Below, piece by piece: positions 8,449-60,480 of a DNA stretch of 64,000 nt. The DNA is from Escherichia coli (GTDB taxonomy: Bacteria; Pseudomonadota; Gammaproteobacteria; Enterobacterales; Enterobacteriaceae): the NCBI RefSeq assembly GCF_009931435.1, contig NZ_CP043414.1; one strand, given 5' to 3'. The notes below the pieces were generated by a model. That model searched no databases. It was given only the letters and a program-made list of their open reading frames with translations, and had not been told where the DNA came from. A program made the translations under genes and the position numbers. Numbering within the stretch: position 1 is the first letter of the stretch; each line of letters starts with the position of its first letter.

Positions 8449-8467
8449 TAGACAGGAGACAGTCACA

Positions 8468-26144: not shown

Positions 26145-26146
26145 GA

Positions 26147-32200: not shown

Positions 32201-35200
32201 TCATACCACCAATGTCCACCCCCATCTCCATGGTCGTGGAGCAGTTCAGCACATTAACTTTGCCTGACTTAAATTGTTTTTCATTAAACTGGTTCTGCTC
32301 AGGCGTTCTCTGCGCAGAGTGTTCCTCCAGACGATACCAGCTATCTTTCAGGGCCAGTCGGTCGCTGCGAGTAGACCATAATCCTTCCTCGCGGGCATGT
32401 TGAATCAGCGCATTACTTTCCAGCCACTCCAGACGTTCTTCTCGGGCGATTTCTCCACCACCAGACAAACGCCAGTGACGTACAGGAAGCTCAGGCATTT
32501 CAATCAACACTGCTTTTTCAGGTGCAATTTCTTTGCTACCCGGCAAATACGGAGAGTATCCCAGTAACGTGACGTCTAACGCACGTCGAGTATAGGGGCA
32601 ACGCCACACTTGCTTTGGACTGTAAAATTCAGCTTGTTGTTTAATATCCAGCTGATAACCCGACTCAAACTGACGTAAGCAGGGTCGAATTGCATCCCAG
32701 ACCTCAATCATTAAGTGGTTAACTAACGATTTCCAGTGAGCCTGCTCAGGTTGTATTGCCGGAAAGACTGCAATTAATAGCTTAATGACCCGGTTATAAT
32801 GGCGATCGCGTATTTGTGGCCAAAGTTGATCACGTTTCTGCCCTTTGTTTTTTTTATCTGGACCCTGCAGCATTTTTACCGGGAAACGAGCCCCCATCCA
32901 GCGAGGGTATTGCTCGTTTTCGTAAAAAACGGCACTGTTTTCACGTATAAAGAAATCAAGAGTAATCTTCAATAAATTACGCCATTCCGCTAATTGCTTA
33001 TCGGGATCGGGTAATAATGTCTTCCAGTCCTGCGGGCAGGTTGTAACTTTATCAATAAATGGATAGTGAATGGCTACCAGACCCAGACTTTCGAGGGTCC
33101 AGGCATTTTTAGGGCGGCGACCAAACTCACTGTATAAACAAAAATCTGCAAACTGTTGTTTAGTAAGATCAAGCCCAGACAATTCTTTAAAACTGCCTCT
33201 CATTCTATCGGCAAGGTCCACACTGCCAACCAGCTGTTCAGACAGTGTTTGCCATGACATGGTTTTCTTCTGCTGATTGCCAGAGTTAGCCTGGAGTATT
33301 TGCATCGCTTCAGCATGATCCGGGCTTAAGGAACTCACCATCGGCTCGATAATTTTAAGTGCCTGAATGTCCGCCGGGCTAAGCTCTTCATTAGCAACCA
33401 TCGCTTTTTTCAGCGCGTCAATAGAGTTTTTTAAAGGAAGGATAGAAAACTGGGCAATAAAACTCTCTAACAATGCGCAGTGTGCCGGGCTGAGCTTTGC
33501 TGATGGCTCATTAATATTGGCCAGCTCCTGGTAGCAAAGAGCTCGCAACGTCGCTTTATCGGCATCCTGCTGTAAGCGGGCAGAAATGCGGGCAGTGCCC
33601 TGACGTGAATCCGTAAAGGTGAGCAGACGTCGACCATTAAACGGTCCTAACTGCTCTTCTCTTGTCTGCGGTAATGGTGAAAACTCCAGCAGAGTAGGAA
33701 TAATTTCATTTAAAAAAAAGGGCGCGCCAAGTCGAAGCGGACGGAATAAAGGATTATTTTTTCGTTGGGTGTCACCACAGCAAACACAAGCAAAGGAATT
33801 ATTACGTCCCTCACCTCGAGATTCCGGTCTTAACAGGTTTATTTCATAGTGCTTTTGCGCTTCACTATCAATTTTCCCCGCCGTCGTTTCTTCCAGTGAA
33901 ATGATATATTTTTCACCATCGCTCGCAATCAGACGATCAAATTGAGAGTTATTGTCTAATTCGTCGTTGTCTTCATCTTCAGAATAAACATCTACATCAA
34001 GAGCAAACTCATCCACTTCGGCAGCGGCGGGTTGCGCTACCAACCAGTTCGTTCCATCACCGCGCATCTCCTCTTTGGCAGACAAATAAGCTGAACCACA
34101 CCCGGAGCAACGTAAAACTTCAAATACCGGCGCACCACAGTCACAATATTGGCGCTGCTCAAACCATACCTGACCAAATGGCCAGTCACTCTGATTTAAT
34201 TCATGTGCTTTATGTGAGCATTGTTTGTTTGAACATGCCCATAGACCCGCCAGTGTTCTGATAAATCCATGCATACGTAATGGCGTAAAAGCCAGTTCAC
34301 CTTCTCGCGATCTTGCCATTAGATCGAGGAGTTGCAGTAGCTCACGGTGATTAATATCTGGCCAGGTTCTTCTGGCAACATTGAGCAACTCACTCAAACG
34401 TACTGCCTGCCGTCCGGGATGAGTTAACGCCTGACGCAATTGCTGGGCCACACGGTAATGACAAAGCTGTTGGTAAAGATCCTGAGGGCTCAGAGATTTA
34501 AGAGAAGTTAAAGATGTGGGGTATTCATGACGAATCAGCGACTCCGATACCCGCGGTATTTGTCGATAACCGCGAACCACTTTGACATCACGTTCTGTAA
34601 CGCCCGCGAGATCAGCGACAAATTTAGCAAGCTCCTTATTACCTTCAGGAGAGTCTTCACCAATAGTGGCAGAGGTCGCGATAATCTGCACAGGTTTATC
34701 TGTGCCGGGTCCAACATTGAAAGCCTGCATAACACGACGTAAAAGCAGCGCTAACTCAGCAGCCTGAGAACCAATATAACTATGGGCTTCATCCAGGACG
34801 ATATACTTTAACATCCCCTGAGACTTTTCGATGATTGGGGCATCTTTACGACGAATCAGCATATATTCCAGCATGGTGGTATTCGTCACCATGATGGAAG
34901 GTGGTGCTTCGTAAATGGCTTCCCGACTCAAAGCTTGTTCAGGTACTTTCAACTGATCTTCCTGAATTTCGTATTTGGTATGCCGGGTTTCGCCATTATA
35001 TAGCGCGAAGCGTATTTTCCCCTTAAATCCGCGCGTCCATTCGCGAAGCCGCTCCTGTTGACTGTTAATTAATGCATTTAACGGATACAAGAAAATAGCT
35101 TGTGTCCCTGTTAGTGACTGGCGGGTCGATTTTTGCTGACGAATAAGATCTTCCAGAACCGGTACCATAAAGCATTCTGTTTTCCCGGATCCCGTACCGC

Positions 35201-35552
35201 TGCTCACTAACAAGGATTTTTTGTCTTCCAGAATTGTTCGCCACGCAGTGAGTTGATGACGAAATGGCACTGGCGCTTTGCTCAATGCATCAACCAGCGG
35301 GCTGGAGATCAGCTTGTCCCGCAAATCCTCCATTGTTTCATCCGCAGGCATCCAGCCGAATGTACTTTCGAATACCGGGTCTGCAAGCAGTGACCCCTCC
35401 TGACCGGGAGGCTGAAAATATTGTGATTCCAGATAATGAGTCAACGACTTGCTCCGCAATGCCAACTGACTTACCACCGACCTCACCGCACGCTGATGAA
35501 GCTGATTTAGAAGTGGCGCATAATGCAGTTGCTGAACGTCCATCAATGACAT
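29229..35552 (-). CDS. druE: Giant 2107-aa DEAH helicase/DUF1998 protein, DruE-like (Druantia signature protein)
   Basis: SGTGSGKTECFMVPVL (I), VLDEAHSYIGSQ (II), ATSATI (III), QRAGRAGRRGES (VI), then Cys/His clusters CLSCGRAE...CHGHVHKD and DCSCDKFCHHCLLSY (DUF1998-like). Same architecture as the 2113-aa protein. Start overlaps the stop of the upstream 1119-aa gene by 10 bp. Confidence 0.6.
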   Translation of the reverse strand: MSLMDVQQLHYAPLLNQLHQRAVRSVVSQLALRSKSLTHYLESQYFQPPGQEGSLLADPVFESTFGWMPADETMEDLRDKLISSPLVDALSKAPVPFRHQLTAWRTILEDKKSLLVSSGTGSGKTECFMVPVLEDLIRQQKSTRQSLTGTQAIFLYPLNALINSQQERLREWTRGFKGKIRFALYNGETRHTKYEIQEDQLKVPEQALSREAIYEAPPSIMVTNTTMLEYMLIRRKDAPIIEKSQGMLKYIVLDEAHSYIGSQAAELALLLRRVMQAFNVGPGTDKPVQIIATSATIGEDSPEGNKELAKFVADLAGVTERDVKVVRGYRQIPRVSESLIRHEYPTSLTSLKSLSPQDLYQQLCHYRVAQQLRQALTHPGRQAVRLSELLNVARRTWPDINHRELLQLLDLMARSREGELAFTPLRMHGFIRTLAGLWACSNKQCSHKAHELNQSDWPFGQVWFEQRQYCDCGAPVFEVLRCSGCGSAYLSAKEEMRGDGTNWLVAQPAAAEVDEFALDVDVYSEDEDNDELDNNSQFDRLIASDGEKYIISLEETTAGKIDSEAQKHYEINLLRPESRGEGRNNSFACVCCGDTQRKNNPLFRPLRLGAPFFLNEIIPTLLEFSPLPQTREEQLGPFNGRRLLTFTDSRQGTARISARLQQDADKATLRALCYQELANINEPSAKLSPAHCALLESFIAQFSILPLKNSIDALKKAMVANEELSPADIQALKIIEPMVSSLSPDHAEAMQILQANSGNQQKKTMSWQTLSEQLVGSVDLADRMRGSFKELSGLDLTKQQFADFCLYSEFGRRPKNAWTLESLGLVAIHYPFIDKVTTCPQDWKTLLPDPDKQLAEWRNLLKITLDFFIRENSAVFYENEQYPRWMGARFPVKMLQGPDKKNKGQKRDQLWPQIRDRHYNRVIKLLIAVFPAIQPEQAHWKSLVNHLMIEVWDAIRPCLRQFESGYQLDIKQQAEFYSPKQVWRCPYTRRALDVTLLGYSPYLPGSKEIAPEKAVLIEMPELPVRHWRLSGGGEIAREERLEWLESNALIQHAREEGLWSTRSDRLALKDSWYRLEEHSAQRTPEQNQFNEKQFKSGKVNVLNCSTTMEMGVDIGGMSLVAMNNVPPAPANYLQRAGRAGRRGESASAAITLCKNTAHGMEVFKDPLWAFNTTASAPRVRFGSSSIVQRHVNALVLGLFLRAEVPDATKLSCKWFFEGDESQCLRFLHWLNNQADQLADKLKRLTQGTVLMSLTATQLLTRTQAMMQQVDIRWRSQLAILLENIEALKADNSAWEETPAGKAIAYQLRDYRGAYLFSKLISEAFLPGHGFPVGVVNFNYLTADELEKRRAIKATQADPNEGGESFSRRIEKLPSRDLPTALREYAPGADVVLGGKVYRSSGIMLGKVLASGQELSGDHHIPWFWHCRKCGAGATSATHPVECSHCKADIQQLDVKRYLQPVGFATDIRYQAHNDVSMPAQLPWKDPRVLVPSSVWVSLPDAGLGRYRFSHSGELFHFSEGEFGHGYAICLSCGRAESQTQPQRTPENLKNPERENTHYLLRGGSNDRQGSNKLCHGHVHKDLWLGYSSRTDMVELQLNDDNGLLIRDEVAARSLAVALREGLAHKLGIENTELGVTTQQARDINGYTGYSIFIYDNNAGGAGYAVQLIDHWADVFNYARKLLDCSCDKFCHHCLLSYDSQHYVNRLDRHHALTLLTNVRLQRLNLAPEYQYFGDGSRVETNPLSLRIAQCLNSEIYDSCSLVLAGPQEQWDFAQWPLFKELLQFASSGGHVELLVATPLANLTDSSRHQLSALAAMPGGRLQVKSIATAQLMQGKGRWLAQVTREGQSQQWAADDSATVAPGELWGQSASSPVVTLKGTSGKTFSGQTLSAEDLLPALPTGAVRINLCEQLDGPLEGFGSRFWSLVTQQHAGWKQAFTRHKEITHVEYSDRYLNSPFTARLLGEILTELVEQGMAERASLTVCVKKLDYNSRQHDALYNAWLNEEDRQQVVTTLLEEGYLGPAWPGAISWLTGDNQSTEHGRELTVTFSDGSQHYVLLDMGLSYWRCIEDTFFDFALRVPQQVERLANTRARAVAPGNDLRSYVIAG

Positions 35553-38500
35553 ACTCCTGCTTGTTCAAAATAATATTGATAGATTACCCCTAATTGCTGT
35601 GGGGCTTGCTGATAGTGAAATTCAAAAAGCGCAGACAGTTGATGTATCAGGTTATTATCTTTTTGGGTTAACAGCGCTGCGACTAACATCAAATTAAAAC
35701 GTTTTTCAAGCCGTGAGTGATATTTATCTTCAATCCAAAGCTTATTAAAAACAGATTTTAACTCTGGAGTAATAGCACTAGACCAAAGTTCTTTAGGGAA
35801 GATACTGATACGCCCAAAGCTGTCGGGGTTCCTTAATAGCATCTGTTTAGCTTCATTAAACTGCTCACGACTAACAGTTGGCAATACATCACAACCGGTT
35901 GGTAGGCTCTCACTATATGTAAGTAACATATTCGCAATGGGAGCCAGCCGACGATCGATATGTGCACGATGGTTCATAAAAGCAATAAAGGGTTGCAATA
36001 TATGTAATGCTAATGTTTTATCGTTAATCTGTTTTTCCAGATAAGTCCAACATTTTTGGAAAACATCTTTCCAGATTGAAACGGGAATCCATCCCCATGA
36101 AAAGGGTAATTCTTCCTGTATATCATAAATCGTATCGCTATCACCAGAAAGACATGATGATATTAACAATTGAACAACCACGCGGTAATTACTCGAAATA
36201 CCTCTGAACAAGTCCAGATCCAGCAAGGATAAGCCATTATTCATTTTGTACTTCTTAATATACTCTGTTAATAAACAGCAATAATTTTGCAATGGGTTGT
36301 TATCTATTTCAAAAATTAGCTCATTAAAATTTTTTTTGCGCTGTTCTGGGTCTGCTTCGCATAGAGCATTTAGTAATAAATCATTTGTCTGCAATACAGG
36401 TAGCATCCATTTAATTACTGGTGCAATGCGAGCTGTACCATCAAGTTTTCCCACAATTAACCATGGACTATCCTGAACATTCAGAGCTGAAAGATCATAA
36501 GCAAATTCATCTTTTTTTAGCAATGATTTGTGTAAGCCAGGATCCTTAAGAGAAATAGCATCAACAACCAGTTCGTCTATTCTATTTGCAGGAAAAACAA
36601 CAGAATTTTTTATATCAACCAGCAACCCTTGATCGTGTTCAATAAAACTACCATCGTAGCGTTTAATATTGAGTGTTGCTTTATCCTTTCCAAATCTGTC
36701 AGAGTAAAAATCAACACATAATGTACTATTGCTGTTCCATGCACATGCCAGCATAGCATTTAGCAAATTATAGTTCTCATAAAGTGAAATTTGTTGTAAT
36801 TTGTCATTGCGTCCTGATAAAAGAGGAAGGTCGGCATGTAAATAACGGAATTTTTCAGCTACTGGATTTTCATCCAATAACTCGATATTAAGATATCCTC
36901 TTCCAGCACATGATATGGTTAATAACTCAGCATCTATTCCATGCAAATGTGCTATAGATGCCACACCATCAAAATGAACAGAACCATCATTAGTTACAAA
37001 TCGGCCACCGCTAACCGGCTTAGGTAATAATAGTTTAAGATTAGAACCATCTTTCCAGGAGACCCGTAAATCAACGGTATTTTCCAGCATCTGCGATGAA
37101 TTATAATAAATAGCACACTCGTTTTGTGAATAATCGGACTTAAGTGTTACTTTTTCATTGTTTGAATATTTATCAATTCTAGTATCCGTTATACCAGAAA
37201 GCATAATAATGCCTTGCTGAGCACTCTCAGGTATAATATTAATATCGAAGTCTGCTGGTAAAACTACAACTTTACCGCTAAATAAAACCTCATCATTAAC
37301 TATTCGCCGGACTTCTATCTGTCCTTTTGGCATTTCTGATGCGACAGAATACCAGGCATTGTTACCTGAACGAATGGAACGCCAAAAAAGTTCTTTCTCC
37401 GGTACAATGCCATATTGCAGATCCTTTTTCCAACCGATCTTCGGCCAGGCTCGATGGACAGGATAATCCGATTTAACCAGTTCAACTTCTGTCGATTTAA
37501 TATAATATTCAATCGCAGAATCATAAAGTTGCTGGGTGCGAATTGTACAAACAGCACCATCATGTAAAACAACGCTAAATACTCCACTTATTTTAGTTAA
37601 GCTGCGTTCACTGTTTTTCAGCAACCTTGGGATATCAAACTCACCTTCTCCACTAATATCTAAATGGCTATTTTTCGGTAGCGAAATAAACAGAGCATTT
37701 AGCCTGGAACTCACAGACCCCATACCGACAAGTTTTAGCTGCGATTCACTCTCATTCATCGCTTCAAAAACCCAGGGGAGTTCTTCAGTAAGTTCATAAC
37801 CGCCTTTTGGAATTGTGTGGCCTAACAGAATTGGACCTTCATGAAGCGACAACGAGATTTCGGCCATTGCATCTGCACCAGAGAGCTTTTGCATCGCAAT
37901 AGGTAATAACTCGACCCGCCAATCTTGCTGCTCATAACGGCTTAGCATTGCCAACCTTGCCCCGCCATTTCTCCATTTTCCTGAAATGATGAGTCGGGTC
38001 TGCTCCGGCTGAATATGGCATTCAAACAAAGAGGTTAACTGTTCTGTACGCATTGTGGCCGGGAATCGGAACCGGGCATCACAATACCAACTGTCATCAA
38101 CATCGACCCAGATTCTTTCAACCTGAAGACTACTTGCACTGCGTATTTCAGAAGATTGAGAAAGTAATCGCCTTACAATCTCTGCAGCATTCGCTTCGGG
38201 GAGAACGAGTGGAAGTTGAAGATGCCAGTCTGGAGAGAGCTTACGTAATGCAGAAACGGGATCACTGCTTTGAGGTGGATGCTCACTAAGTAATCGGCAG
38301 AGAGTCTCGCAGAATTCACCGGCTATTTCATAGACCAGTTCGTTTTGCATTGTGACAGGAATCGTATCGCCTAATTCTTGTGCAATTTTAGCGGCAGGAT
38401 ATTGAGATGCTTGCCCACGAAGCGCCTGATATATCCTTCTGAAATAGGTAATCAAATAACCGCTCTCATTTTCAATCATGCGGATAGGTAAACCACCTTC

Positions 38501-38902
38501 ACAAGCCAGTGTATGCAGATAACCCGAAGCTTGCCCCAGGTTTCTTATCTTTCTTTTCCAGTAGCGAATGCCATCATTAACCAGCTTCTGTCGATGAACA
38601 TACGGAACTTTCCAGTCAATAGAATCTAAAATTGTGTCCCATTTAGGGTGTCCGACCGTATGAGTCCGGCGGATAAACTCTGCGGCATATATGCTAAATA
38701 GAACATCGCTATAGGAAATGAATATCGTTCTTGGATAACTACGAGGGGCATATGTACGCAGTAGTTCTGCCAAACTTTCGTACTCTGTATCAGTACAACG
38801 GTAAGCATATAACGCCCGTCCATCAGCTCCGGATAATGAACGGCGACTAAAAAACATGTTAAGCCATTGCAAAAGTGGGTTAACTGGAGTTTTCACAAGC
38901 AA
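35543..38902 (-). CDS. druH: 1119-aa protein of unknown function, DruH-like partner of DruE
   Basis: Large low-GC ORF with no recognisable catalytic motif, translationally coupled to the DruE-like gene. The pairing and size agree with the two-gene Druantia type III layout as I recall it; assignment is by context only. Confidence 0.5.
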   Translation of the reverse strand: MLVKTPVNPLLQWLNMFFSRRSLSGADGRALYAYRCTDTEYESLAELLRTYAPRSYPRTIFISYSDVLFSIYAAEFIRRTHTVGHPKWDTILDSIDWKVPYVHRQKLVNDGIRYWKRKIRNLGQASGYLHTLACEGGLPIRMIENESGYLITYFRRIYQALRGQASQYPAAKIAQELGDTIPVTMQNELVYEIAGEFCETLCRLLSEHPPQSSDPVSALRKLSPDWHLQLPLVLPEANAAEIVRRLLSQSSEIRSASSLQVERIWVDVDDSWYCDARFRFPATMRTEQLTSLFECHIQPEQTRLIISGKWRNGGARLAMLSRYEQQDWRVELLPIAMQKLSGADAMAEISLSLHEGPILLGHTIPKGGYELTEELPWVFEAMNESESQLKLVGMGSVSSRLNALFISLPKNSHLDISGEGEFDIPRLLKNSERSLTKISGVFSVVLHDGAVCTIRTQQLYDSAIEYYIKSTEVELVKSDYPVHRAWPKIGWKKDLQYGIVPEKELFWRSIRSGNNAWYSVASEMPKGQIEVRRIVNDEVLFSGKVVVLPADFDINIIPESAQQGIIMLSGITDTRIDKYSNNEKVTLKSDYSQNECAIYYNSSQMLENTVDLRVSWKDGSNLKLLLPKPVSGGRFVTNDGSVHFDGVASIAHLHGIDAELLTISCAGRGYLNIELLDENPVAEKFRYLHADLPLLSGRNDKLQQISLYENYNLLNAMLACAWNSNSTLCVDFYSDRFGKDKATLNIKRYDGSFIEHDQGLLVDIKNSVVFPANRIDELVVDAISLKDPGLHKSLLKKDEFAYDLSALNVQDSPWLIVGKLDGTARIAPVIKWMLPVLQTNDLLLNALCEADPEQRKKNFNELIFEIDNNPLQNYCCLLTEYIKKYKMNNGLSLLDLDLFRGISSNYRVVVQLLISSCLSGDSDTIYDIQEELPFSWGWIPVSIWKDVFQKCWTYLEKQINDKTLALHILQPFIAFMNHRAHIDRRLAPIANMLLTYSESLPTGCDVLPTVSREQFNEAKQMLLRNPDSFGRISIFPKELWSSAITPELKSVFNKLWIEDKYHSRLEKRFNLMLVAALLTQKDNNLIHQLSALFEFHYQQAPQQLGVIYQYYFEQAGVCH

Positions 38903-39113
38903 CCTGCCTTCCTTTGATACAATTCGTAACAGGTTACTATCATCATAAAAAAGCTCAACCCGATGAACTCGCTAAAAATGAGACAAATCATTTATATCTC
39001 GAAAAAACTTGTTACAATCATGAGCGCTACACCGAACTTAACCATATAAATTATGTGCGTTTTGTTTATTTTTTAAACAATTACAACTATCCATTATTTA
39101 CACAGGTATCAAA

Positions 39114-40766
39114 ATGTTAGCGCAGCTTTTTGAGCAGTTGTTTCAATCGATAGACTCTACACTGATCACCAATATTTTCATCTGGGCTGTTATATTCGTA
39201 TTTTTATCAGCGTGGTGGTGTGACAAAAAAAATATACATAGTAAGTTTAGAGAATATGCTCCAACCTTAATGGGGGCATTAGGTATTCTGGGTACTTTCA
39301 TTGGTATTATTATTGGGTTACTCAATTTTAATACTGAAAGTATTGATACCAGCATCCCCGTATTATTAGGCGGCCTAAAAACAGCATTCATTACAAGCAT
39401 TGTAGGTATGTTTTTTGCCATTTTATTTAATGGAATGGATGCTTTCTTTTTTGCCAATAAACGAAGTGCGTTAGCAGAAAATAACCCTGAATCTGTTACA
39501 CCTGAACATATCTATCATGAATTAAAAGAGCAGAACCAGACTCTGACTAAATTAGTCTTGGGTATTAACGGTGATAGTGAAGGTTCTCTTATTGCTCAAA
39601 TAAAATTACTACGTACTGAGATTAGCGATTCCTCGCAGGCACAATTAGCTAATCACACTCATTTCAGTAATAAGCTTTGGGAACAACTTGAACAATTTGC
39701 AGATCTAATGGCAAAAGGTGCTACAGAACAAATTATTGATGCTTTACGACAAGTCATTATTGATTTTAATGAAAATTTAACTGAACAGTTTGGTGAAAAC
39801 TTTAAAGCACTTGATGCCTCTGTAAAAAAACTTGTTGAGTGGCAGGAAAATTATAAAACGCAAGTTGAGCTGATGTCAGAACAATATCAACAAAGTGTCG
39901 AGTCTCTGGTTGAAACAAAAACTGCGGTTGCCGGGATTTGGGAAGAATGTAAAGAAATTCCTCTGGCTATGTCTGAACTGCGTGAAGTGCTTCAGGTGAA
40001 CCAACATCAAATCAGCGAACTCTCCCGCCATTTAGAAACCTTTGTCGCTATCCGCGATAAAGCTACAACCGTATTACCTGAAATACAGAACAAAATGGCT
40101 GAAGTGGGTGAACTGCTGAAATCCGGAGCTGCAAATGTTAGTGCATCTCTTGAGCAAACCAGCCAGCAAATACTTCTTAATGCAGATTCAATGCGCGTGG
40201 CCCTGGATGAAGGTACCGAAGGATTCAGACAATCGGTTACCCAAACACAACAAGCATTTGCCTCGATGGCACATGATGTCAGCAATTCCTCCGAAACTCT
40301 AACCAGCACGTTAGGTGAAACAATTACTGAAATGAAACAAAGTGGTGAAGAATTCCTGAAGTCACTAGAGTCGCACTCGAAAGAATTGCATAGAAATATG
40401 GAACAAAATACGACTAATGTAATTGATATGTTCAGTAAGACTGGTGAAAAGATTAACCATCAACTATCCAGTAATGCCGATAATATGTTTGATTCAATCC
40501 AGACATCATTTGATAAGGCAAGTGCAGGGCTGACTTCTCAAGTCAGAGAATCAATTGAAAAATTTGCTCTATCCATCAACGAGCAGTTACATGCTTTTGA
40601 GCAAGCAACTGAACGTGAGATGAACCGTGAAATGCAATCATTAGGTAATGCTCTGCTTTCAATCAGCAAAGGTTTTGTCGGTAACTATGAAAAACTTATT
40701 AAAGATTACCAAATAATTATGGGACAGTTACAAGCATTAATTTCTGCTAATAAACATCGAGGGTAA
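39114..40766 (+). CDS. zorA: ZorA-like MotA/ExbB/TolQ-family membrane protein with a long coiled-coil tail (Zorya)
   Basis: N-terminal hydrophobic helices (IFIWAVIFVFLSAWW; MGALGILGTFIGIIIGLL; FITSIVGMFFAILFNG) followed by about 400 aa of polar, heptad-like low-complexity sequence. Immediately followed by a MotB/OmpA-like gene and an HNH gene. Confidence 0.65.
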   Translation: MLAQLFEQLFQSIDSTLITNIFIWAVIFVFLSAWWCDKKNIHSKFREYAPTLMGALGILGTFIGIIIGLLNFNTESIDTSIPVLLGGLKTAFITSIVGMFFAILFNGMDAFFFANKRSALAENNPESVTPEHIYHELKEQNQTLTKLVLGINGDSEGSLIAQIKLLRTEISDSSQAQLANHTHFSNKLWEQLEQFADLMAKGATEQIIDALRQVIIDFNENLTEQFGENFKALDASVKKLVEWQENYKTQVELMSEQYQQSVESLVETKTAVAGIWEECKEIPLAMSELREVLQVNQHQISELSRHLETFVAIRDKATTVLPEIQNKMAEVGELLKSGAANVSASLEQTSQQILLNADSMRVALDEGTEGFRQSVTQTQQAFASMAHDVSNSSETLTSTLGETITEMKQSGEEFLKSLESHSKELHRNMEQNTTNVIDMFSKTGEKINHQLSSNADNMFDSIQTSFDKASAGLTSQVRESIEKFALSINEQLHAFEQATEREMNREMQSLGNALLSISKGFVGNYEKLIKDYQIIMGQLQALISANKHRG

Positions 40767-40772
40767 TCGATC

Positions 40773-41480
40773 ATGGATAAGATTATAGGGAAACAATTAC
40801 CTAAAAAAGATCAAGATAATGAACACTGGGTATCCATGTCAGACCTAATGGCAGGGCTGATGATGGTTTTTATGTTCATATCTATTGCTTATATGCACTA
40901 CGTACGTATTGAAAAAGAAAAAATTAAAGAAGTTGCCGTAGCCTACGAGAATGCTCAGTTACAGCTTTATAATGCTCTGGATATTGAGTTTGCAAAGGAT
41001 TTACAAGACTGGGATGCAGAGATCGATAAACAGACTCTGGAGGTTCGATTTAAATCACCGGATGTTTTATTTGGCTTAGGAAGCACAGAGCTAAAACCAA
41101 AGTTTAAACTCATTCTTGACGACTTCTTTCCTCGCTACCTAAAAGTTCTAGATAATTATCAGGACCATATTACTGAAGTCCGCATTGAAGGTCACACAAG
41201 TACTGACTGGACAGGAACAACGAATCCTGATATTGCTTATTTTAATAATATGGCACTATCACAAGGTCGTACACGTGCAGTATTACAATACGTTTATGAC
41301 ATAAAAAATATCGCGACACACCAACAATGGGTTAAAAGTAAATTTGCCGCAGTAGGTTATTCATCTGCACATCCCATTCTTGATAAAACCGGCAAGGAGG
41401 ATCCTAATCGCTCTCGTCGTGTCACCTTCAAAGTTGTAACAAATGCCGAATTGCAGATTAGAAAGATTATTCAGGAGTAA
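40773..41480 (+). CDS. zorB: ZorB-like MotB/OmpA-family peptidoglycan-binding protein (Zorya)
   Basis: Single N-terminal transmembrane helix carrying an Asp (SMSDLMAGLMMVFMFISIAY), with a C-terminal OmpA-like motif (NMALSQGRTRAVLQYV...SRRVTF). Separated from zorA by 6 bp. Confidence 0.65.
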   Translation: MDKIIGKQLPKKDQDNEHWVSMSDLMAGLMMVFMFISIAYMHYVRIEKEKIKEVAVAYENAQLQLYNALDIEFAKDLQDWDAEIDKQTLEVRFKSPDVLFGLGSTELKPKFKLILDDFFPRYLKVLDNYQDHITEVRIEGHTSTDWTGTTNPDIAYFNNMALSQGRTRAVLQYVYDIKNIATHQQWVKSKFAAVGYSSAHPILDKTGKEDPNRSRRVTFKVVTNAELQIRKIIQE

Positions 41481-41483
41481 GAG

Positions 41484-42587
41484 ATGAAATTATCTATCGA
41501 CATTTCAGAACTTATTCAATTAGGGAAGAAAATGTTACCAGAAGGAGTCGATTTTTTTCTGGATGAATCCCCTATTGACTTTGATCCTATAGATATTGAG
41601 TTATCCACGGGTAAAGAAGTTAGTATCGAAGATCTTGACCCTGGTAGCGGGCTTATCTCTTATCATGGCCGCCAGGTTCTTTTATATATTCGGGACCATT
41701 CAGGGCGTTATGATGCGGCTATCGTAGATGGCGAAAAAGGAAAACGTTTTCATATTGCCTGGTGCAGAACTCTTGATGAAATGCGCCATAAAAATCGATT
41801 TGAAAGGTATCATGCAACTAACCGCATAGATGGTTTATTCGAAATTGATGATGGTTCAGGTCGGAGCCAGGATGTTGATTTACGGGTATGTATGAATTGC
41901 CTCGAACGACTTAATTATAAAGGAAGTATTGATAAACAACGAAAAAGAGAGATTTTTAAATCATTCTCATTAAATGAGTTTTTTTCAGATTATAGTACCT
42001 GTTTTCGTCATATGCCTAAGGGTATCTATGACAAAACAAATAGTGGGTATGTCGAAAACTGGAAAGATATATCTAAATCAATACGAGAAAAGGCAAATTA
42101 TGTTTGTAATGATTGTGGCGTGAATTTATCAACCGCCAAAAACTTGTGCCATGTCCATCATAAAAATGGCATCAAATATGATAATCACCATGAAAACCTT
42201 CTTGTTCTGTGCAAGGATTGCCATCGAAAACAGCCCCTCCACGAAGGTATATTCGTTACCCAAGCTGAGATGGCTATCATTCAACGTTTACGTTCCCAAC
42301 AAGGGTTATTAAAAGCAGAATCCTGGAATGAAATATATGACCTGACTGATCCATCAGTGCATGGTGATATTAATATGATGCAACATAAAGGCTTTCAACC
42401 TCCTGTTCCTGGGTTAGATCTTCAAAACTCAGAACATGAAATTATTGCAACCGTAGAAGCTGCATGGCCAGGCCTTAAAATTGCAGTTAACCTTACTCCC
42501 GCCGAAGTCGAAGGATGGAGAATATATACCGTGGGTGAGCTGGTTAAAGAAATACAAACAGGAGCCTTTACGTCAGCAACGTTGTAA
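41484..42587 (+). CDS. zorE: ZorE-like HNH endonuclease (Zorya type II effector)
   Basis: HNH motif CNDCGVNLSTAKNLCHVHHKNGIKYDNHHENLLVLCKDCH. Lies 3 bp downstream of zorB, completing a ZorA-ZorB-HNH trio. Confidence 0.6.
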   Translation: MKLSIDISELIQLGKKMLPEGVDFFLDESPIDFDPIDIELSTGKEVSIEDLDPGSGLISYHGRQVLLYIRDHSGRYDAAIVDGEKGKRFHIAWCRTLDEMRHKNRFERYHATNRIDGLFEIDDGSGRSQDVDLRVCMNCLERLNYKGSIDKQRKREIFKSFSLNEFFSDYSTCFRHMPKGIYDKTNSGYVENWKDISKSIREKANYVCNDCGVNLSTAKNLCHVHHKNGIKYDNHHENLLVLCKDCHRKQPLHEGIFVTQAEMAIIQRLRSQQGLLKAESWNEIYDLTDPSVHGDINMMQHKGFQPPVPGLDLQNSEHEIIATVEAAWPGLKIAVNLTPAEVEGWRIYTVGELVKEIQTGAFTSATL

Positions 42588-42796
42588 ATTCCGAAACTCC
42601 GTGAAAGTTAAGACTTTCACGGAAGATAAATAAAATTCTCCTGATTTGTGACTCAAATTATAAAAGTCGTTTATGGCATAACTTGTCTGTTTTTTTGGTG
42701 TAATAGGTATAAAGGCATATGCTATGGTTAGCCTTATATTTAAAACTTTCCTCATACGGGTGAAGGTTAAAGCTTGGTAGATAGGTTACAGTCACA

Positions 42797-43406
42797 ATGA
42801 ATAAAGCAATAACGGTGCTTGCTATAATGATGGCTTCATTTTCCGTAAATGCGTATGTATTACCGGAAACGCCTGTGCCATTTAAAAGTGGTACCGGAGC
42901 AATTGATAACAACACTGTCTACATTGGTTTAGGTAGCGCAGGTACGGCATGGTACAAGCTGGAGAAACAGACCAAAGATAAAAAAATGGACAGCGTTAGC
43001 TGCATTTCCTGGTGGACCGAGAGATCAAGCAACTTCTGCATTTATTGATGGCAATCTGTATGTGTTTGACGGCATTGGCAAAAACAGTGAGGGCTTGACT
43101 CAGGTATTTAATGACGTTCACAAATACAACCTCAAAACCAATAGCTGGGTTAAATTGATGTCGCACGCGCCGATGGGCATGGCGGGTCATGTGACATTTG
43201 TACACAACGGCAAGGCTTATGTTACTGGCGGTGTTAACCAGAATATCTTCAATGGCTATTTTGAAGATCTTAACGAAGCTGGAAAAGATTCAGCGTACCG
43301 GTCACCGGAGAACTGGATGACGGTACTGCGAAGCAGTCATTTCAGTCGGGGGATGATTGTAGACAAATTTGTTGACGCTATTTTGCGGTTTTGGCGTGAA
43401 GGGTGA
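42797..43406 (+). pseudogene. Degenerate nanM'-nanS' fusion remnant: diverged second copy of the nanM 5' part joined to the nanS 3' end, with a frameshift
   Basis: MNKAITVLAIMMASFSVNAYVLPETPVPFKSGTGAIDNN... parallels the NanM N-terminus and frameshifts after ...QTKDKK. The second frame continues NanM-like (...GKNSEGLTQVFNDVHKYN...EDLNEAGKD) and then jumps directly into the NanS C-terminus (SAYRSPENWMTVLRSSHFS...FWREG). The following roughly 55 bp are near-identical to 10620..10677 after the intact nanS. Confidence 0.8.
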
Positions 43407-43413
43407 GCGTTCA

Positions 43414-44064
43414 TTAATTTGATTTATTTGCATCCATCAACGCTTTTAACTGCTCCGGCGAAAACGGTGGTTTGCGTCGGTGCAACATCGCATGGCAATT
43501 AGGGCACACAGGAAGCAAATCATTAACTGGATCCAGCTGGTAATTCTCTTTAATGGCTGAAAGCGGCACCAGGTGATGCACATGGATAAAGCCTTCAGCG
43601 ATATCACCATAGATCTTCACCAGATCAACGCCGCATACGTTGCACTGGCATCCATGATGTTCGACCGCTTTATCTCGGGCCTTTTTATCGCGTTCATAGC
43701 GGTTTACTGTCACCTTTATCGCCGCACCTTCAACGTATGTCTCCTGCGACGGCAACTCATCCGGGAACAGAACGTCGGCTATGGGAGCCGCAGCGGCTTT
43801 ATCCTGATGAATATGAAATCCCTGCTCTATGAGTAGTTTGACGCATTTAGATTTTATTCCGCCGGTGAAATCCGCAGGGGTAAATTGCGTCCCCGTCATC
43901 AATGTCGCTGCGATGCCAGCAATCGCCTTCGAGGGGTAACGTCGGCCATGATATTCAATCTCATACAACCGCGCAGGCTGGAACTGATGAGTTTCTCCCG
44001 CATCCCATAAATGGATAGCTTCGATGATATACCGCCGCGGAAGATGATCAGGGAGTTTATTCAT
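43414..44064 (-). CDS. HNH endonuclease family protein (McrA-like C-terminus)
   Basis: C-terminal CQCNVCGVDLVKIYGDIAEGFIHVHHLVPLSAIKENYQLDPVNDLLPVCPNCHAMLH is an HNH/zinc motif; the N-terminal domain is of unknown function. Confidence 0.6.
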   Translation of the reverse strand: MNKLPDHLPRRYIIEAIHLWDAGETHQFQPARLYEIEYHGRRYPSKAIAGIAATLMTGTQFTPADFTGGIKSKCVKLLIEQGFHIHQDKAAAAPIADVLFPDELPSQETYVEGAAIKVTVNRYERDKKARDKAVEHHGCQCNVCGVDLVKIYGDIAEGFIHVHHLVPLSAIKENYQLDPVNDLLPVCPNCHAMLHRRKPPFSPEQLKALMDANKSN

Positions 44065-44143
44065 GGAGAATGTCCTTATACGTTCTCAGAACAGGCAGCA
44101 AAAAAACAAATGAGATCAAGGTAATATATCTTCACTTGCAGGC

Positions 44144-45073
44144 TTGAACAGCAGAAAATTTGCGAGCATGATCGCAATTATTTCACTGCCAGGGATATCA
44201 ATGGCTTCCAGTAAATCGCTACAGCAGGCAATTGCCAATATAAAAATCTGGCACAAGGGTGAACAGCGCGCGCCGCATAAGCCATTGTTATTGCTATACG
44301 TATTAGCGGGATACCTGAATGGACATCCGCGCCTTTTCGATTATGGCTCGGAAATCTACGAACCTCTGCACAGTTTACTGGAACGTTTTGGGCCACAGCG
44401 TTCACAGTACCGACCTGATATGCCGTTCTGGCGATTACAAGGCGACGGATTCTGGCAATTACACAATGCCGAACTTTGCTCAACAGCAGGGAGTAGCCGA
44501 CAACCGCCAGTGAAGGAACTGACCGAACACCGCGTTGCAGGCGGTTTCGATGAACAGCACTATGCCCTGGTAATCGGCAATAAAAAACTCATCAATACCC
44601 TGGCGCAACAGATACTCGAAGCGCACTTCACCGAGAGCATTCAGGAAGAAATTGCTGACGAGCTGGGTTTTGATCTCCAGCAAATCCGTAAACAGCGCGA
44701 CCCGTTATTTCGCAAACTTGTATTGCGCGCATATAACTACCAGTGCGCGATATGTGGCTTTAATATGCGCCACGATGACACCACCGTCGCACTGGAAGCA
44801 GCGCATATAAAATGGAAACAGCACGGCGGTCCTTGTGAAATTCCTAATGGCCTGGCGCTTTGTGCAATACACCATAAAGCCTTTGATAAAGGATCGATTG
44901 GCCTGGATGAAAATATGCGGGTACTGGTCTCGGATGCGGTAAACGGCGGAGGGATCGTTGAGAAACTATTCTGGGATTTTGACGGGAAAACTATTGCGTT
45001 ACCACAGGTGCGTAAAAATTACCCTTTTGAGGGGTTTGTGGAGTGGCATCGAAAAGAGGTTTTTAGGGGGTGA
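44144..45073 (+). CDS. HNH-motif nuclease-like protein, divergent from the preceding HNH gene
   Basis: C-terminal CAICGFNMRHDDTTVALEAAHIKWKQHGGPCEIPNGLALCAIHHKAFDKG (HNH-like). Shares a 79-bp divergent intergenic region with the 43414..44064 gene. The true start may be an internal Met. Confidence 0.55.
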   Translation: MNSRKFASMIAIISLPGISMASSKSLQQAIANIKIWHKGEQRAPHKPLLLLYVLAGYLNGHPRLFDYGSEIYEPLHSLLERFGPQRSQYRPDMPFWRLQGDGFWQLHNAELCSTAGSSRQPPVKELTEHRVAGGFDEQHYALVIGNKKLINTLAQQILEAHFTESIQEEIADELGFDLQQIRKQRDPLFRKLVLRAYNYQCAICGFNMRHDDTTVALEAAHIKWKQHGGPCEIPNGLALCAIHHKAFDKGSIGLDENMRVLVSDAVNGGGIVEKLFWDFDGKTIALPQVRKNYPFEGFVEWHRKEVFRG

Positions 45074-45695
45074 GGTTGATAACTATCGCAGTATGTTCAA
45101 TATTGCTGACATAATCAGTGCAGGATCTTGCCGCTAGTTTACAACTCGCCTTCGATAGCGGCGCAAAACGAGTTCTGTTGCCGATATCCTCGGCTATGGA
45201 TATTCCAACAGTTCCGGCAGAGTTGTTTACCAAGTTTCAGGTAAGTTTTTACTCAGAACCGGTTGATGCGGTTTATAAGGCGCTGGATGTGAATTAACAC
45301 ATTCCTCAGCTTATTTACAAAAGGATTATTCCCATTTGATATAATATCAGTGCCAATTTACTTTTTTCAATGGAATATATCTCGGCTAAATAACAATAAA
45401 ACTTATCGCTAATGGATTAAATAAACAATTTTCTAATTTATTTCACCACCTTTGATATAGAAATTGATGGTGTTGTCGCTGCCATTGCTTATGGTGATGA
45501 TAAAATCCACGTTTCTGGATCGGTGCGTAGAAAATCATCACTTCCTTGATATTTTGATGCGATATGATCATACCGTTCCGTAGTACCAATTTCAACTTCA
45601 GGCTAAACCCCAACATTAAAAAAATTAGAGTTATTCACTGATTATATTATCAATAATATAATCAGTGAATAACATGGACTATATAATAAATTGCT

Positions 45696-47744
45696 CTAAT
45701 CATTTCCCTTACGAATATATGGGCCAAAAGCCCAAGAATCATAATAAGGGTGATGGACTAATTTTTCATTAAATCGAACACTATAAGTTAATTTTTTTAT
45801 ATTTTTACGTACAGCATTAATACTGGGCAAAGAGGAAAGATAATCTATAAACTTATCGATAGTGATTTTCCCTTCGCAACACTCAAACCCATCAATGATA
45901 TTTTTCGCCATTTTTCCATTTTCATTTGTTTGATATATCACTCCAGGTATTCGTTGAAAAAAACTAGATAATGCATATTTGTCCGCTACATATGTATCAT
46001 CCACATGATATTTCCCACCGAGCATAGTTGTAGTAACAATAAGCTTATACACACCTTTGGGTTGCCATGTTGATGGTAGTTCGAATTCTTTAATGATCAC
46101 ATCAAGATGATTAAGATAATGTTCAGAAATTCGATTTATTTGTTGAAAATAAGAACGCATAAATTTATTATTATGATCATGTATTAATGAGCTATCTCCA
46201 ACGATGTTACACACTTGCTGATAGTACTTACCATAATATATTGGTTGACCATTTGATTTTAGTTCTGTAAAAATCAAACAATCATCCAGGAGAATCACGC
46301 AATCGCACTGATAATTAGCATGAGCATCAATTGGAGAAGCTTTAATCCCCGCATCACGAACTTGTTTTATAAATTGTTGCTCATGAAATCGCCCTTTACT
46401 TGCTTGAGAAATTTTTTTGGAACCAAATAATGACATTAGAGAGCGAGTCACTGAGCTATTTGCTATTAATGCAGGCATTAAGCATAAACCGTCCATACAG
46501 GGAATAAATGGGCAATCATTAAGATCATGTGATTTTGAATTGAAGGTAAAATAATCTATCAGTTTTTTTGCTGCATCTGCTGCAATCCCCTTACGTTGAA
46601 AGAATGATAACCAACTCTCACGGCTTTTTATGACCAGCCAGCGATCCAACTGTAGGGGTATAGGTTTTGTCGATGAAAATCTTTTGCTCATTTCTTCTTT
46701 AGATAACTCGACTAAACATTGATAAGCGTGCACCCAATTAAATAATGATATATTCCCATATTCTTCATGAAGGTCATCAGGAGACATATTTTCCAACTCG
46801 CTTAAATGAAATGAGCTAAAAACGCCATCAGAATTTAAGTAAGATGGCATATGATCCTTTACCCAACTATTTAGATGAAAATGTTTGTTACTAAATTCAT
46901 GAACTTCGCTATATAGATGTGACGCTCTCATCATTAGTCTATTTCTTGCAATCTCATAATCTCGGTATAAACAAAAACTATCAACCTCAAGAGAGTAAAT
47001 GTTATTATCCAATTTTGTAAATACTGCACTACTTAGTCTGAAAAAGTCTCTTACTCTGCTTAATGAGTCAAAAACATTCCACTCATTAAGGTACCCTCCC
47101 ATTGAAAGCAAGGTTTGTTTATTCACACAAGAAGTTAGTTTCAATGGCCCATGAGTCCGTAAATAAGAAAATATTCTTCCGGTGTAATTGGCTACCTCAT
47201 CAAATGCCCTATCGATAACTCGAAAATATTCGATATCAGGTTCAGCATGAATATTAATATTTTCAGAAACGATAAATAATGGAAAAATCCTCTTCATTTT
47301 TTTAGGATCATTGACCACAACCAAGGATGATAATGATGATAAAAACATCTCACAAAACATGATGAGATTAAGTATTAATGCATGTGATTTTTTTGTATTT
47401 TTACGCCAAATACCAGCACATTTTGCAGCCCCAAAGAAAGAATTATTTATATCATGCATAATTTTACATTGACTCTCGAACTCAGAGATTAGTTCAATGT
47501 TATCAGGAAATGAGTTTACTAGCTCATTAATACATTTTTTGAATGTATTGTTATACTCAACTTCAGTCTGAACTGAAAATCTATTATAATAGATGGAAGA
47601 TATTCTCAGCACATCCAAGGCGATATCTATACTAATATCATCTCTTTTTATGTACTCACAAAAAAAAGAACAAAACTGTTTCGGGTCGTTAGCAAGATTA
47701 CTAATTCTAGTGGTATCATAAACTTTTTCCATTTTTCCATACAT
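45696..47744 (-). CDS. Hypothetical 682-aa protein, very low GC, adjacent to leuX
   Basis: Long uninterrupted ORF in strongly AT-rich DNA with no recognisable motif by eye. Its position next to the tRNA and its composition suggest horizontal acquisition. Confidence 0.5.
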   Translation of the reverse strand: MYGKMEKVYDTTRISNLANDPKQFCSFFCEYIKRDDISIDIALDVLRISSIYYNRFSVQTEVEYNNTFKKCINELVNSFPDNIELISEFESQCKIMHDINNSFFGAAKCAGIWRKNTKKSHALILNLIMFCEMFLSSLSSLVVVNDPKKMKRIFPLFIVSENINIHAEPDIEYFRVIDRAFDEVANYTGRIFSYLRTHGPLKLTSCVNKQTLLSMGGYLNEWNVFDSLSRVRDFFRLSSAVFTKLDNNIYSLEVDSFCLYRDYEIARNRLMMRASHLYSEVHEFSNKHFHLNSWVKDHMPSYLNSDGVFSSFHLSELENMSPDDLHEEYGNISLFNWVHAYQCLVELSKEEMSKRFSSTKPIPLQLDRWLVIKSRESWLSFFQRKGIAADAAKKLIDYFTFNSKSHDLNDCPFIPCMDGLCLMPALIANSSVTRSLMSLFGSKKISQASKGRFHEQQFIKQVRDAGIKASPIDAHANYQCDCVILLDDCLIFTELKSNGQPIYYGKYYQQVCNIVGDSSLIHDHNNKFMRSYFQQINRISEHYLNHLDVIIKEFELPSTWQPKGVYKLIVTTTMLGGKYHVDDTYVADKYALSSFFQRIPGVIYQTNENGKMAKNIIDGFECCEGKITIDKFIDYLSSLPSINAVRKNIKKLTYSVRFNEKLVHHPYYDSWAFGPYIRKGND

Positions 47745-48421
47745 CCTATTGTCTAAATTACTATAAAATTAGCCACTTAACTAATAATTATAAATTTCAT
47801 CTTTTGCACCTTGCATTTTTATAACCAATGAAATCTACAACAAGCAACTGATGGATAATCCGATATTGGTCGCATTTAATGGCATGGTAGCAAAGTTTTC
47901 ATCACATACCTCCTTTGCACCAGAATAAACGCCAGAGACCTGAAATTGCGAGTACACTACAGAAATTGTACTGCCGGTCCCATCAGCATAAAACCATAGT
48001 TACACAGGTAATCATCATTATTCACCAAGATAATAAATATTATTCGGTAGAATAGCGTTCTCAGGTGGTCAGTAAAATTGTCTTCAACAAGATGTCTGCG
48101 CATCTCGTCTGCTAGCCCTACATAACTGCTCTCGACCGAAACTATTTATTGAATGTTCACCAAGGTGGGCGTGGAGACAAAATGACGTCTTTTGATATTA
48201 GCTACCTGAGCCACATGGTCAAAACGTTCAAGTAGCATAGCGAAACCACCCTGCCCACGTAATGTGGACGATGCAGCTTCCAGCCAGAGCAAACTTGGGA
48301 CCATCGACTACCAAATGAAGAATACTGAACTGCTTTTCTGGCAGGCCTATATACTGCACGGATATGGGTGATTTCAGACACAAAAAAAGCCGCTCTTGAG
48401 CGACTCGATTTGCATACGGTG

Positions 48422-48506
48422 TGGTGCCGAAGGCCGGACTCGAACCGGCACGTATTTCTACGGTTGATTTTGAATCAACTGCGTCTACCGATTTCGCCAC
48501 TTCGGC
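48422..48506 (-). tRNA. leuX: tRNA-Leu (anticodon CAA), leuX
   Basis: The minus-strand sequence GCCGAAGTGGCGAAATCGGTAGACGCAGTTGATTCAAAATCAACCGTAGAAATACGTGCCGGTTCGAGTCCGGCCTTCGGCACCA forms the acceptor stem, carries a CAA anticodon in a TTCAAAA loop, has a long variable arm and ends in CCA. Confidence 0.95.
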
Positions 48507-48701
48507 ACTGAAGAGGTATGCGGAAAACGTTGTGGATTATACCTGTCACGCGCCACCATGCAAGCGCCAGCTTGCTCGCACCTCGCTAAGTGCTGAAATT
48601 TTCAGCATTGCATTCCGCGATGTGTAACCTTTGTCACACTCCAGGCACCCCGCCCTACCATGCTCTACACTTCCCAGACAACACCAGAGAAGGACAAAAA
48701 T

Positions 48702-58959: not shown

Positions 58960-60474
<1,515 letters not shown>

Positions 60475-60480
60475 TTGCAT

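Follow-up and report, generated by a model that had tools for sequence, protein, structure and literature searches.

[quoted passage not shown]

Introduction

The first report of the type II Zorya system of E. coli ATCC 8739 came from Doron et al. (2018). Mariano et al. (2025; PMC11890865) used the ATCC 8739 system in their experiments, in which it defended against T7 and CS16F and deletion of any of its genes abolished protection against T7. In the same study, ZorB's peptidoglycan-binding domain and ZorA's extension into the cytoplasm were needed against all phages tested, and defence required ZorB residue D24 (PMC11890865). The nickase activity of ZorE and a model for its recruitment come from this work, as do the identification of D21 in Sulfuricurvum kujiense ZorB as the ion-conducting aspartate of the solved structure and the finding that a periplasmic collar of ZorA, not a MotB plug helix, closes the Zorya channel (PMC11890865). 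Anti-phage defence by Zorya II has also been demonstrated in a native host, EDL933.

Zorya II is known to keep company with other defence systems. An array of ARMADA II together with Druantia III and Zorya II has been published (bioRxiv 10.1101/2025.09.22.677730; 10.1101/2025.09.15.676423), with a count of 426 of 3792 complete E. coli genomes for the nine-gene array, and the type adjoining tRNA-Leu is O-island 172 (OI-172), described in EDL933. Experiments have shown synergy between the systems for EDL933 OI-172 and for the Zorya II-Druantia III pair of ECOR19, and synergy of Zorya II with Druantia III (druH) was reported together with mutagenesis of ZorE (PMC13192584).

Results

A compact zorA2-zorB2-zorE operon

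We analysed a 64,000-nucleotide stretch of E. coli DNA (contig NZ_CP043414.1), referred to as a whole as the window. Positions 39114-42587 almost certainly hold an intact, canonical E. coli type II Zorya anti-phage operon, zorA2-zorB2-zorE. Three contiguous, co-directional ORFs lie on the + strand in the order A-B-E, each with an ATG start: zorA2 (39114-40766; 550 aa), encoding a MotA/ExbB-like ion-channel subunit; zorB2 (40773-41480; 235 aa), encoding a MotB-like subunit; and zorE (41484-42587; 367 aa), encoding the predicted effector nickase. A 6-bp gap (TCGATC) separates zorA2 from zorB2 and a 3-bp gap (GAG) separates zorB2 from zorE, exactly the ORF positions and 3- to 6-bp spacings that an initial annotation, made from the sequence alone, had given. 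Its description of the locus as low in GC holds as well: the three genes have 38.1% GC, against 51.7% in the chromosomal backbone (48.6-64 kb) and 47.3% in the whole window.

Upstream, a 211-bp intergenic region (38903-39113) separates zorA2 from the divergent druH and is the presumed promoter region for both operons; Li et al. described zorABE and druHE as divergently transcribed. This region is 99.1% identical to its ATCC 8739 counterpart, and sigma-70-like sites lie on its + strand at 38914-38943 and 38991-39018. Promoter and terminator scans of the locus gave nothing above shuffled background, the number of sigma-70-like sites included.

All three products match type II PADLOC profiles over their full length: ZorA2 with E 1.3e-301 (query 1-550 against profile 1-545/545), ZorB2 with E 1.5e-104 and ZorE2 with E 9.2e-177. 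They also exceed the cut-offs of the corresponding NCBIfam equivalogs, namely NF041792 (ZorA2; 1137.7 bits against 700, aligned 1-550/550), NF041787 (ZorB2; 443 bits against 400) and NF041791 (ZorE; 694 bits against 600). The profile search that the initial annotation had proposed, with ZorA, ZorB and ZorE models, thus placed the proteins in ZorA2, ZorB2 and ZorE and upheld its Zorya type II call. Its wording, Zorya II-like, understates the case, since the trio shares ~99% identity with the reference system of ATCC 8739.

Domains and functional residues of the three subunits

ZorA2 has a membrane core of three hydrophobic segments (aa 12-114; nt 39147-39455, + strand), within which aa 51-110 match Pfam MotA_ExbB (E 1.6e-6). 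The core is followed by a cytoplasmic helical tail of 436 aa (aa 115-550; nt 39456-40763, + strand) that contains four prolines and matches the amphipathic-helix families Apolipoprotein and ApoLp-III in Pfam. ZorA of the S. kujiense structure (PDB 8VVI) aligns with E 3.6e-37, the tails being alignable up to aa 383. The protein is therefore the polytopic, long-tailed MotA/ExbB relative that had been described, and the lack of MotA/ExbB homology that would have spoken against the call did not materialise.

ZorB2 is a single-pass protein. Its one transmembrane helix (aa 20-44, + strand) includes D24 (codon 40842-40844), and an OmpA-type peptidoglycan-binding domain spans aa 99-213 (nt 41067-41411, + strand; Pfam OmpA E 3e-8). 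The match to ZorB of 8VVI has E 1e-52 and aligns D24 with D21. The residues required by published mutagenesis, D24 and the peptidoglycan-binding residues H141, S143, R215 and R230, are all present with the same numbering. The conserved Asp and OmpA motif of the initial annotation are thus both found, but the Asp lies in the transmembrane helix and not in a plug region, D24 being the counterpart of the ion-conducting D21.

In ZorE, an N-terminal domain termed DUF8245 in PMC13192584 precedes an HNH nuclease core (~aa 185-262; nt 42036-42269) and a C-terminal domain modelled as Vsr-like (aa 262-367; nt 42267-42584), all on the + strand. Residues 208-247 carry the HNH signature C-x2-C...HH...N...C-x2-C-H, and PHROG HNH families match aa 185-262 (best E 1.4e-9). 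None of the Pfam HNH models was significant on ZorE (HNH_3 E 0.08), and we base the HNH assignment not on Pfam but on the motif, on profiles from PHROG, PADLOC and NCBIfam and on published mutagenesis. The catalytic His, H226 (codon 42159-42161), is present together with H90, Y189, K231, N234, H235, H247 and H253, and no ZorE residue that mutagenesis has marked as required, H90, Y189, H226 and K231 among them, is missing; the third gene is accordingly the HNH endonuclease that had been proposed, and both residues singled out for checking, the ZorB Asp and this His, are in place. A PDB sequence search returned nothing for full-length ZorE or its C-terminal domain. ZorE is the sole accessory gene of the operon, and none of ZorC, ZorD, ZorF and ZorG was found among the neighbour genes scanned by profile.

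The operon closes a three-system defence array

The divergent neighbour druH (35543-38902, - strand) matches PADLOC DruH3 over its full length (E=0) and is 99.1% identical to its ATCC 8739 counterpart. It is followed by druE (29229-35552, - strand), which encodes the YprA-family helicase-nuclease of Druantia type III (PADLOC DruE3 E=0; 99.4% identity to ATCC 8739). Beyond these, armA-armB-armC-armD (12758-29005, - strand) form an ARMADA type II system whose best PADLOC matches agree with the published composition: DrmD-like for ArmA (26147-29005), type IIG MTase / DrmMI-like for ArmB (21210-26144), DruE-like YprA helicase for ArmC (14869-21210) and GajB-like for ArmD (12758-14872). The arm genes are collinear with those of ATCC 8739 at 99.5% identity, except for ArmB, which reaches merely 89.8%.

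Read along the window, the order is ArmD-ArmC-ArmB-ArmA-DruE-DruH on the - strand and then ZorA-ZorB-ZorE on the + strand, collinear with ATCC 8739; zorABE is divergent from druHE, followed by co-directional armABCD, as in arrays of the OI-172 type. The three defence systems that the initial annotation saw back to back are thus the published ARMADA II / Druantia III / Zorya II array, and its two flanks, DruH directly upstream and divergent and a nanM'-nanS' remnant directly downstream, are as it described them. The operon recurs in 590 of 5426 complete E. coli genomes, with zorA2/zorB2/zorE as its PGAP/RefSeq annotation, and the arrangement from DruE to leuX is collinear as a whole in 137 genomes.

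The fusion remnant directly 3' of zorE (42767-43460, + strand) has two parts. The first (42767-43289) shares 93.5% identity with the 5' portion of the intact nanM (8438-8959) and the second (43289-43460) shares 85% with the nanS 3' end (10490-10673); RefSeq labels it a frameshifted, partial N-acetylneuraminate epimerase. Between nanS and leuX there is no integrase-like ORF of at least 120 aa. When 10-49 kb was searched for att direct repeats derived from a tRNA, nan duplications alone came up, which is consistent with an immobilised island.

Near-identity to ATCC 8739 and alternative readings

At the amino-acid level, ZorA2 is 98.9% identical to the ATCC 8739 protein (WP_000880884.1), ZorB2 99.15% (WP_000357805.1) and ZorE 98.9% (WP_000777276.1), with equal lengths throughout. 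The differences amount to 6, 2 and 4 substitutions, respectively, or 12 in 1152 residues, none at a residue known to matter. These figures bear on whether the operon might be a decayed or inactive copy, passively carried in an immobilised island. The nanM'-nanS' fusion is a sign of decay, the integrase-like ORF and tRNA-derived repeat are missing as described above, and in some genomes zorB carries an IS2 insertion (H11). Here, all three ORFs keep the lengths of the reference, no substitution touches a required residue, and the presumed promoter-bearing intergenic region is 99.1% conserved. On the intact ORFs and conserved residues we rejected pseudogenisation, which we regard as very improbable.

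Even less probable, in our judgement, is that ZorA and ZorB are a housekeeping 5:2 motor paralog (flagellar MotAB, ExbBD or TolQR) that happens to lie beside an unrelated HNH gene and has no defence role. MotA_ExbB and OmpA folds and Pfam domains are common to such motors, and weak NCBIfam matches to MotB (36.2 bits against a cut-off of 300), MotS (39.7 against 264), MotD (27.1 against 283) and TssL were obtained. None of the flagellar, Tol, Exb or type VI secretion NCBIfam models reached its cut-off on the trio, the 36-40 bits of the better matches contrasting with cut-offs of 264-300; for the ZorA2, ZorB2 and ZorE equivalogs, the thresholds are all exceeded. Moreover, MotA, ExbB and TolQ lack the 436-aa ZorA tail; the tight spacing, low GC and defence-island setting, with neighbours that are not flagellar, Ton or Tol genes, argue the same way, and anti-phage activity has been demonstrated for near-identical genes. 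The profile scores thus dispose of the flagellar or Tol/Exb paralogy that the initial annotation had named as a possible refutation.

We give no credence to another Zorya subtype, whether type I, type III or new: type I and III profiles are also significant (ZorA1 best E 5e-14, ZorA3 3.5e-07; ZorB1 best E 2.3e-56, ZorB3 1.4e-08) and ArmA gives a weak ZorD1 helicase-domain match (E 3.8e-15), but profile comparison rules this out, with type II ahead by hundreds of orders of magnitude for ZorA and by ~48 for ZorB, an operon that has ZorE as its third gene in place of ZorC, ZorD, ZorF or ZorG, and an ArmA that best matches DrmD and BrxHII and belongs to ARMADA II.

A C-terminal domain shared by ZorE and ArmC

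The C-terminal ~100 aa of ZorE model as a Vsr-like PD-(D/E)xK fold; the published label is solely a "nuclease-like extension" in Druantia-associated ZorE. Conserved in this domain are D289, E325, W328 and K332, which correspond to domain positions D28, E64, W67 and K71. Judged by sequence similarity, this domain is homologous to the extreme C-terminus of ArmC, the helicase of the neighbouring ARMADA II. We draw this link because pairwise BLASTP (E 3e-9) and a local phmmer search (E 2.3e-6) connect the two and the PADLOC ZorE2 profile also matches ArmC (E 5.7e-9). Pfam gave no match on the final 300 aa of ArmC. A word-indexed protein search with the ZorE domain returned 8 fragments only, and an exhaustive representative protein search recovered no ArmC-type proteins at a library-wide E <= 0.001. 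Similarity between the ZorE domain and the C-terminus of DruE was also looked for, and none was found.

The shared module might be a common docking or DNA-recognition device that links ZorE mechanistically to ARMADA II and Druantia III. [quoted passage not shown]

Discussion

Much of what this locus represents is already known and published: the Zorya II system, its structure, the activity of its effector, its co-location with Druantia III and ARMADA II, and the insertion at tRNA-Leu. The link between the C-terminal domains of ZorE and ArmC is one small new point of analysis, and it could steer domain-swap work on how the three systems cooperate. The window holds a complete tripartite defence island that is probably functional, and annotating such islands aids prediction of a strain's phage resistance, for example against T7-like phages. 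The initial annotation also shows that Zorya II is recognisable from raw sequence.

How the operon would act can be outlined from publications on near-identical proteins. Five ZorA and two ZorB would form an ion-driven 5:2 motor in the inner membrane, kin of the flagellar stator MotAB; we infer this assembly because the proteins are homologous to those of 8VVI, a solved 5:2 complex. When a phage perturbs the envelope, the OmpA-like domain of ZorB would engage peptidoglycan, ion flow past D24 may then turn or rearrange the pentameric helical tail of ZorA, and this change would recruit and concentrate the HNH nickase ZorE at the infection site. There, ZorE is predicted to nick phage DNA, and host DNA too, with protection mainly against T7-like podoviruses as the likely outcome. 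Against some phages, Druantia can use ZorE without ZorAB. Parts of the published mechanism, the envelope trigger and the rotation of the tail among them, are a model, and host strains differ in whether defence is abortive or direct. For the present operon, stoichiometry, trigger, nicking and phage range are all inferred from the literature.

Set against known systems, the operon grades from remote kinship to near-identity. MotAB and ExbBD / TolQR share with it the MotA_ExbB channel domain, the MotB-type transmembrane Asp and the OmpA-like peptidoglycan anchor, but they lack the long cytoplasmic tail and a nuclease partner. Zorya type I (ZorABCD; E. coli ZorAB of the PDB 8QYD series, Shewanella 8VVN) works on the same 5:2 motor principle and likewise combines a long ZorA tail with a peptidoglycan-binding ZorB; its ZorA is larger, ZorC and ZorD (Mrr-like nuclease/helicase) take the place of ZorE as effectors, and sequence similarity is weak (E 4.5e-5 for ZorA, 5.5e-6 for ZorB). 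The type II ZorAB of S. kujiense, solved by cryo-EM (PDB 8VVI), is a distant ortholog with homologous ZorA core and tail, ZorB and peptidoglycan-binding domain; its ZorA has 378 aa against 550 aa here, which makes the E. coli tail ~170 residues longer. O-island 172 of EDL933 (O157:H7; z5894-z5902) has, by published description, the same nine genes, with zorABE divergent from druHE and then armABCD, although EDL933, like ECOR19 with its Zorya II / Druantia III pair, differs in strain background from the source strain of our sequence. Closest of all is ATCC 8739 Zorya II, with the same gene order, spacing, lengths (550/235/367), validated residues, divergent druH and upstream ARMADA II; its array adjoins cadCBA at a tRNA-Phe site, whereas the one described here lies between the fim/nan region and tRNA-Leu(CAA).

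Profile and structure comparisons support a type II Zorya operon

We identified three ATG-initiated genes on the plus strand at 39114-42587, zorA2 (39114-40766; 550 aa), zorB2 (40773-41480; 235 aa) and zorE (41484-42587; 367 aa), with 6 bp (TCGATC) between the first two and 3 bp (GAG) between the last two. The initial annotation had these coordinates and spacings exactly right, and the low GC content it described was borne out (38.1% for the trio versus 49.4% for the neighbouring ARMADA/Druantia block and 51.7% for the chromosomal backbone at 48.6-64 kb).

All three products gave full-length matches to PADLOC type II profiles: ZorA2 (E = 1.3e-301; residues 1-550 on profile positions 1-545 of 545), ZorB2 (E = 1.5e-104) and ZorE2 (E = 9.2e-177), with much weaker scores for type I and III ZorA and ZorB profiles. 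The curated cut-offs of the NCBIfam equivalog models were likewise all exceeded (ZorA2, 1137.7 versus 700; ZorB2, 443 versus 400 bits; ZorE, 694 versus 600). MotB, MotS, MotD, TssL and OmpA-type NCBIfam models scored only 20-43 bits, well short of their cut-offs (140-615).

The MotA/ExbB homology proposed for the 550-aa protein was present as a Pfam MotA_ExbB match (aa 51-110; E = 1.6e-6), with amphipathic-helix families matching along the tail, and the OmpA-type motif proposed for ZorB was recovered by Pfam OmpA (aa 99-213; E = 3e-8). ZorE had no significant Pfam match; PHROG HNH families covered aa 185-262, in agreement with the annotated HNH endonuclease, and both the conserved Asp (ZorB D24) and the HNH His (ZorE H226) were found. 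Both motor proteins were homologous to chains of 8VVI, a cryo-EM structure of the 5:2 type II ZorAB complex of Sulfuricurvum kujiense: ZorA with E = 3.6e-37, through the tail to aa 383, and ZorB with E = 1e-52, aligning D24 with the ion-conducting D21 (PMC11890865). One detail needed amending: D24, annotated as a plug-region Asp, instead lies within the transmembrane helix of ZorB, and the Zorya channel is shut not by a MotB-type plug helix but by periplasmic loops of ZorA that form a collar (PMC11890865). Together, these sequence comparisons support the earlier interpretation of the trio as type II Zorya.

The operon lies in a published defence array

Left of the array are fim genes (to 6.3 kb, with the fimE and fimB invertases at 4628-6304) and intact nanC-nanM-nanS (7.7-10.7 kb). 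ArmD, ArmC, ArmB and ArmA (12758-29005), DruE (29229-35552) and DruH (35543-38902) follow on the minus strand, and the Zorya operon diverges from druHE. On the right, tRNA-Leu(CAA) (48422-48506, minus strand) precedes ahr, idn genes, lptFG, pepA and valS (from 48.6 kb). This is the published ARMADA II/Druantia III/Zorya II array, O-island 172 of EDL933, present in 426 of 3792 complete genomes (bioRxiv 10.1101/2025.09.22.677730) and also carried, often in immobilised form, by tRNA-Phe- and tRNA-Leu-targeting elements (bioRxiv 10.1101/2025.09.15.676423). Since the setting matches this array, the earlier description of three back-to-back defence systems is correct, and both preprints already document it. 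We detected no integrase-like ORF of at least 120 aa and no tRNA-derived direct repeat between nanS and tRNA-Leu (10700-48421), and the island appears immobilised, like many described tRNA-Leu copies of the array.

Nan sequence flanks the 32-kb ARMADA/Druantia/Zorya block on both sides, the right-hand nanM'-nanS' (42767-43460) being a diverged deletion fusion (junction at 43289) 93.5% and 85% identical to the intact copy (8438-10673). Because ATCC 8739 also has a nanM fragment 3' of zorE (29605-29853 of L002), though its array occupies another chromosomal site beside cadC, the fragment seems to be carried along with the array, not left behind as a scar at this site.

Beyond the remnant is a divergent pair of HNH proteins, probably two more modification-dependent nucleases. 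One (43414-44064, minus strand; 216 aa) joins a type IV restriction-like N-terminal region to HNH, and its gene overlaps nanS' by ~46 bp at the 3' end; the other (44144-45073, plus strand) is a phosphorothioated-DNA-binding restriction endonuclease (NF045808; 436 bits versus a cut-off of 180). Between these restriction genes and tRNA-Leu, a 682-aa ORF (45696-47744, minus strand; GC 33-35%) had zero matches in Pfam, PADLOC, NCBIfam and PHROGs. Thousands of E. coli sequences conserve this ORF, a candidate uncharacterised defence gene, and its homologs (41-75%) extend to Salmonella, Izhakiella (one carrying the UniRef name NERD domain-containing protein), Xenorhabdus, Pectobacterium and Pantoea.

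By megablast, the 3.5-kb operon occurred in 590 of 5426 complete E. coli genomes (529 at ≥80% coverage; best identity 99.1%), with RefSeq/PGAP names zorA2, zorB2 and zorE. The druE-to-tRNA-Leu stretch (19.6 kb) was collinear in 137 genomes (best identity 99.3%). Among the same 5426 genomes, best identity was 99.3% for the island (29000-48600) versus 98.6% for core genes lptG to valS (56514-63934); judged by these values, conservation is higher in the island than in the backbone, and the source strain is from a lineage without a close representative in this collection. In a RefSeq genome (NZ_CM148325.1; L001, 4116-10430), PGAP labels DruE 'motility-regulating DEAH-box RNA helicase' and DruH 'STY4851/ECs_5259 family protein'; because neither name reveals Druantia III, keyword searches could miss both genes.

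The ZorE C-terminal domain resembles the end of ArmC

ArmC was a further match to the PADLOC ZorE2 profile, its extreme C-terminal residues 2021-2096 aligning to profile positions 282-357 (E = 5.7e-9), and a BLASTP comparison of the last 243 aa of ArmC with ZorE aa 251-367 aligned 57 aa at 40% identity (E = 3e-9); the DruE C-terminus showed no similarity to this region. ZorE aa 262-367, used as the query in an exhaustive HMMER scan, recovered 111 representative proteins, mostly ZorE-sized (~360-390 aa) with the domain C-terminal, the remainder being short proteins or fragments. An AF2 model of the domain (42-sequence alignment) had a mean pLDDT of 86.6, about 95 in the core. The region has been described as a nuclease-like extension without an assignable family (Wu et al., PMC13192584), and ARMADA II helicases as carrying C-terminal Vsr-type domains, some predicted inactive (YprA preprint). 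In the papers examined, we found no statement of homology between the two.

Comparison with the characterised ATCC 8739 system

Literature on these ~99% identical proteins suggests a mechanism in which ZorA5B2 would act as an ion-driven motor. Phage entry would perturb the envelope, leading ZorB to bind peptidoglycan; ion flow past ZorB D24 would rotate or rearrange the pentameric ZorA tail; and ZorE would be drawn to the infection site, accumulate there and nick DNA. Whether immunity is direct or acts at the population level would depend on host and phage. Both the trigger and the tail movement remain at the model stage in the literature.

We compared the window with the E. coli ATCC 8739 locus (NC_010468.1, 4239557-4269380). 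ZorA2 (98.9% identity; 6 substitutions), ZorB2 (99.15%; 2) and ZorE (98.9%; 4) are unchanged in length, and the 211-bp druH-zorA intergenic region is 99.1% identical. ArmB (21210-26144, minus strand) is only 89.8% identical, whereas all other array proteins reach 98.9-99.6%; this probably reflects specificity switching of the ARMADA II methyltransferase, consistent with reported armB hypervariability.

The ATCC 8739 system defends against T7 and CS16F, and deletion of any single gene abolishes T7 protection (Mariano et al. 2025, PMC11890865). [quoted passage not shown] ZorB D24 and the peptidoglycan-binding H141, S143, R215 and R230 are needed as well; upon infection ZorAB recruits ZorE, a nickase that depends on Mg/Mn (PMC11890865). 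Residues analysed in ZorE comprise H90, E99, Y109, Y189, H226, K231, N234, H235, N238, L239, H247 and H253 (Wu et al. 2026, PMC13192584). All of these ZorB and ZorE residues, catalytic and binding residues included, are kept at the same position in the window proteins, and the complete operon is therefore intact and most likely functional. The observation is confirmed, and nothing of consequence about the operon is new.
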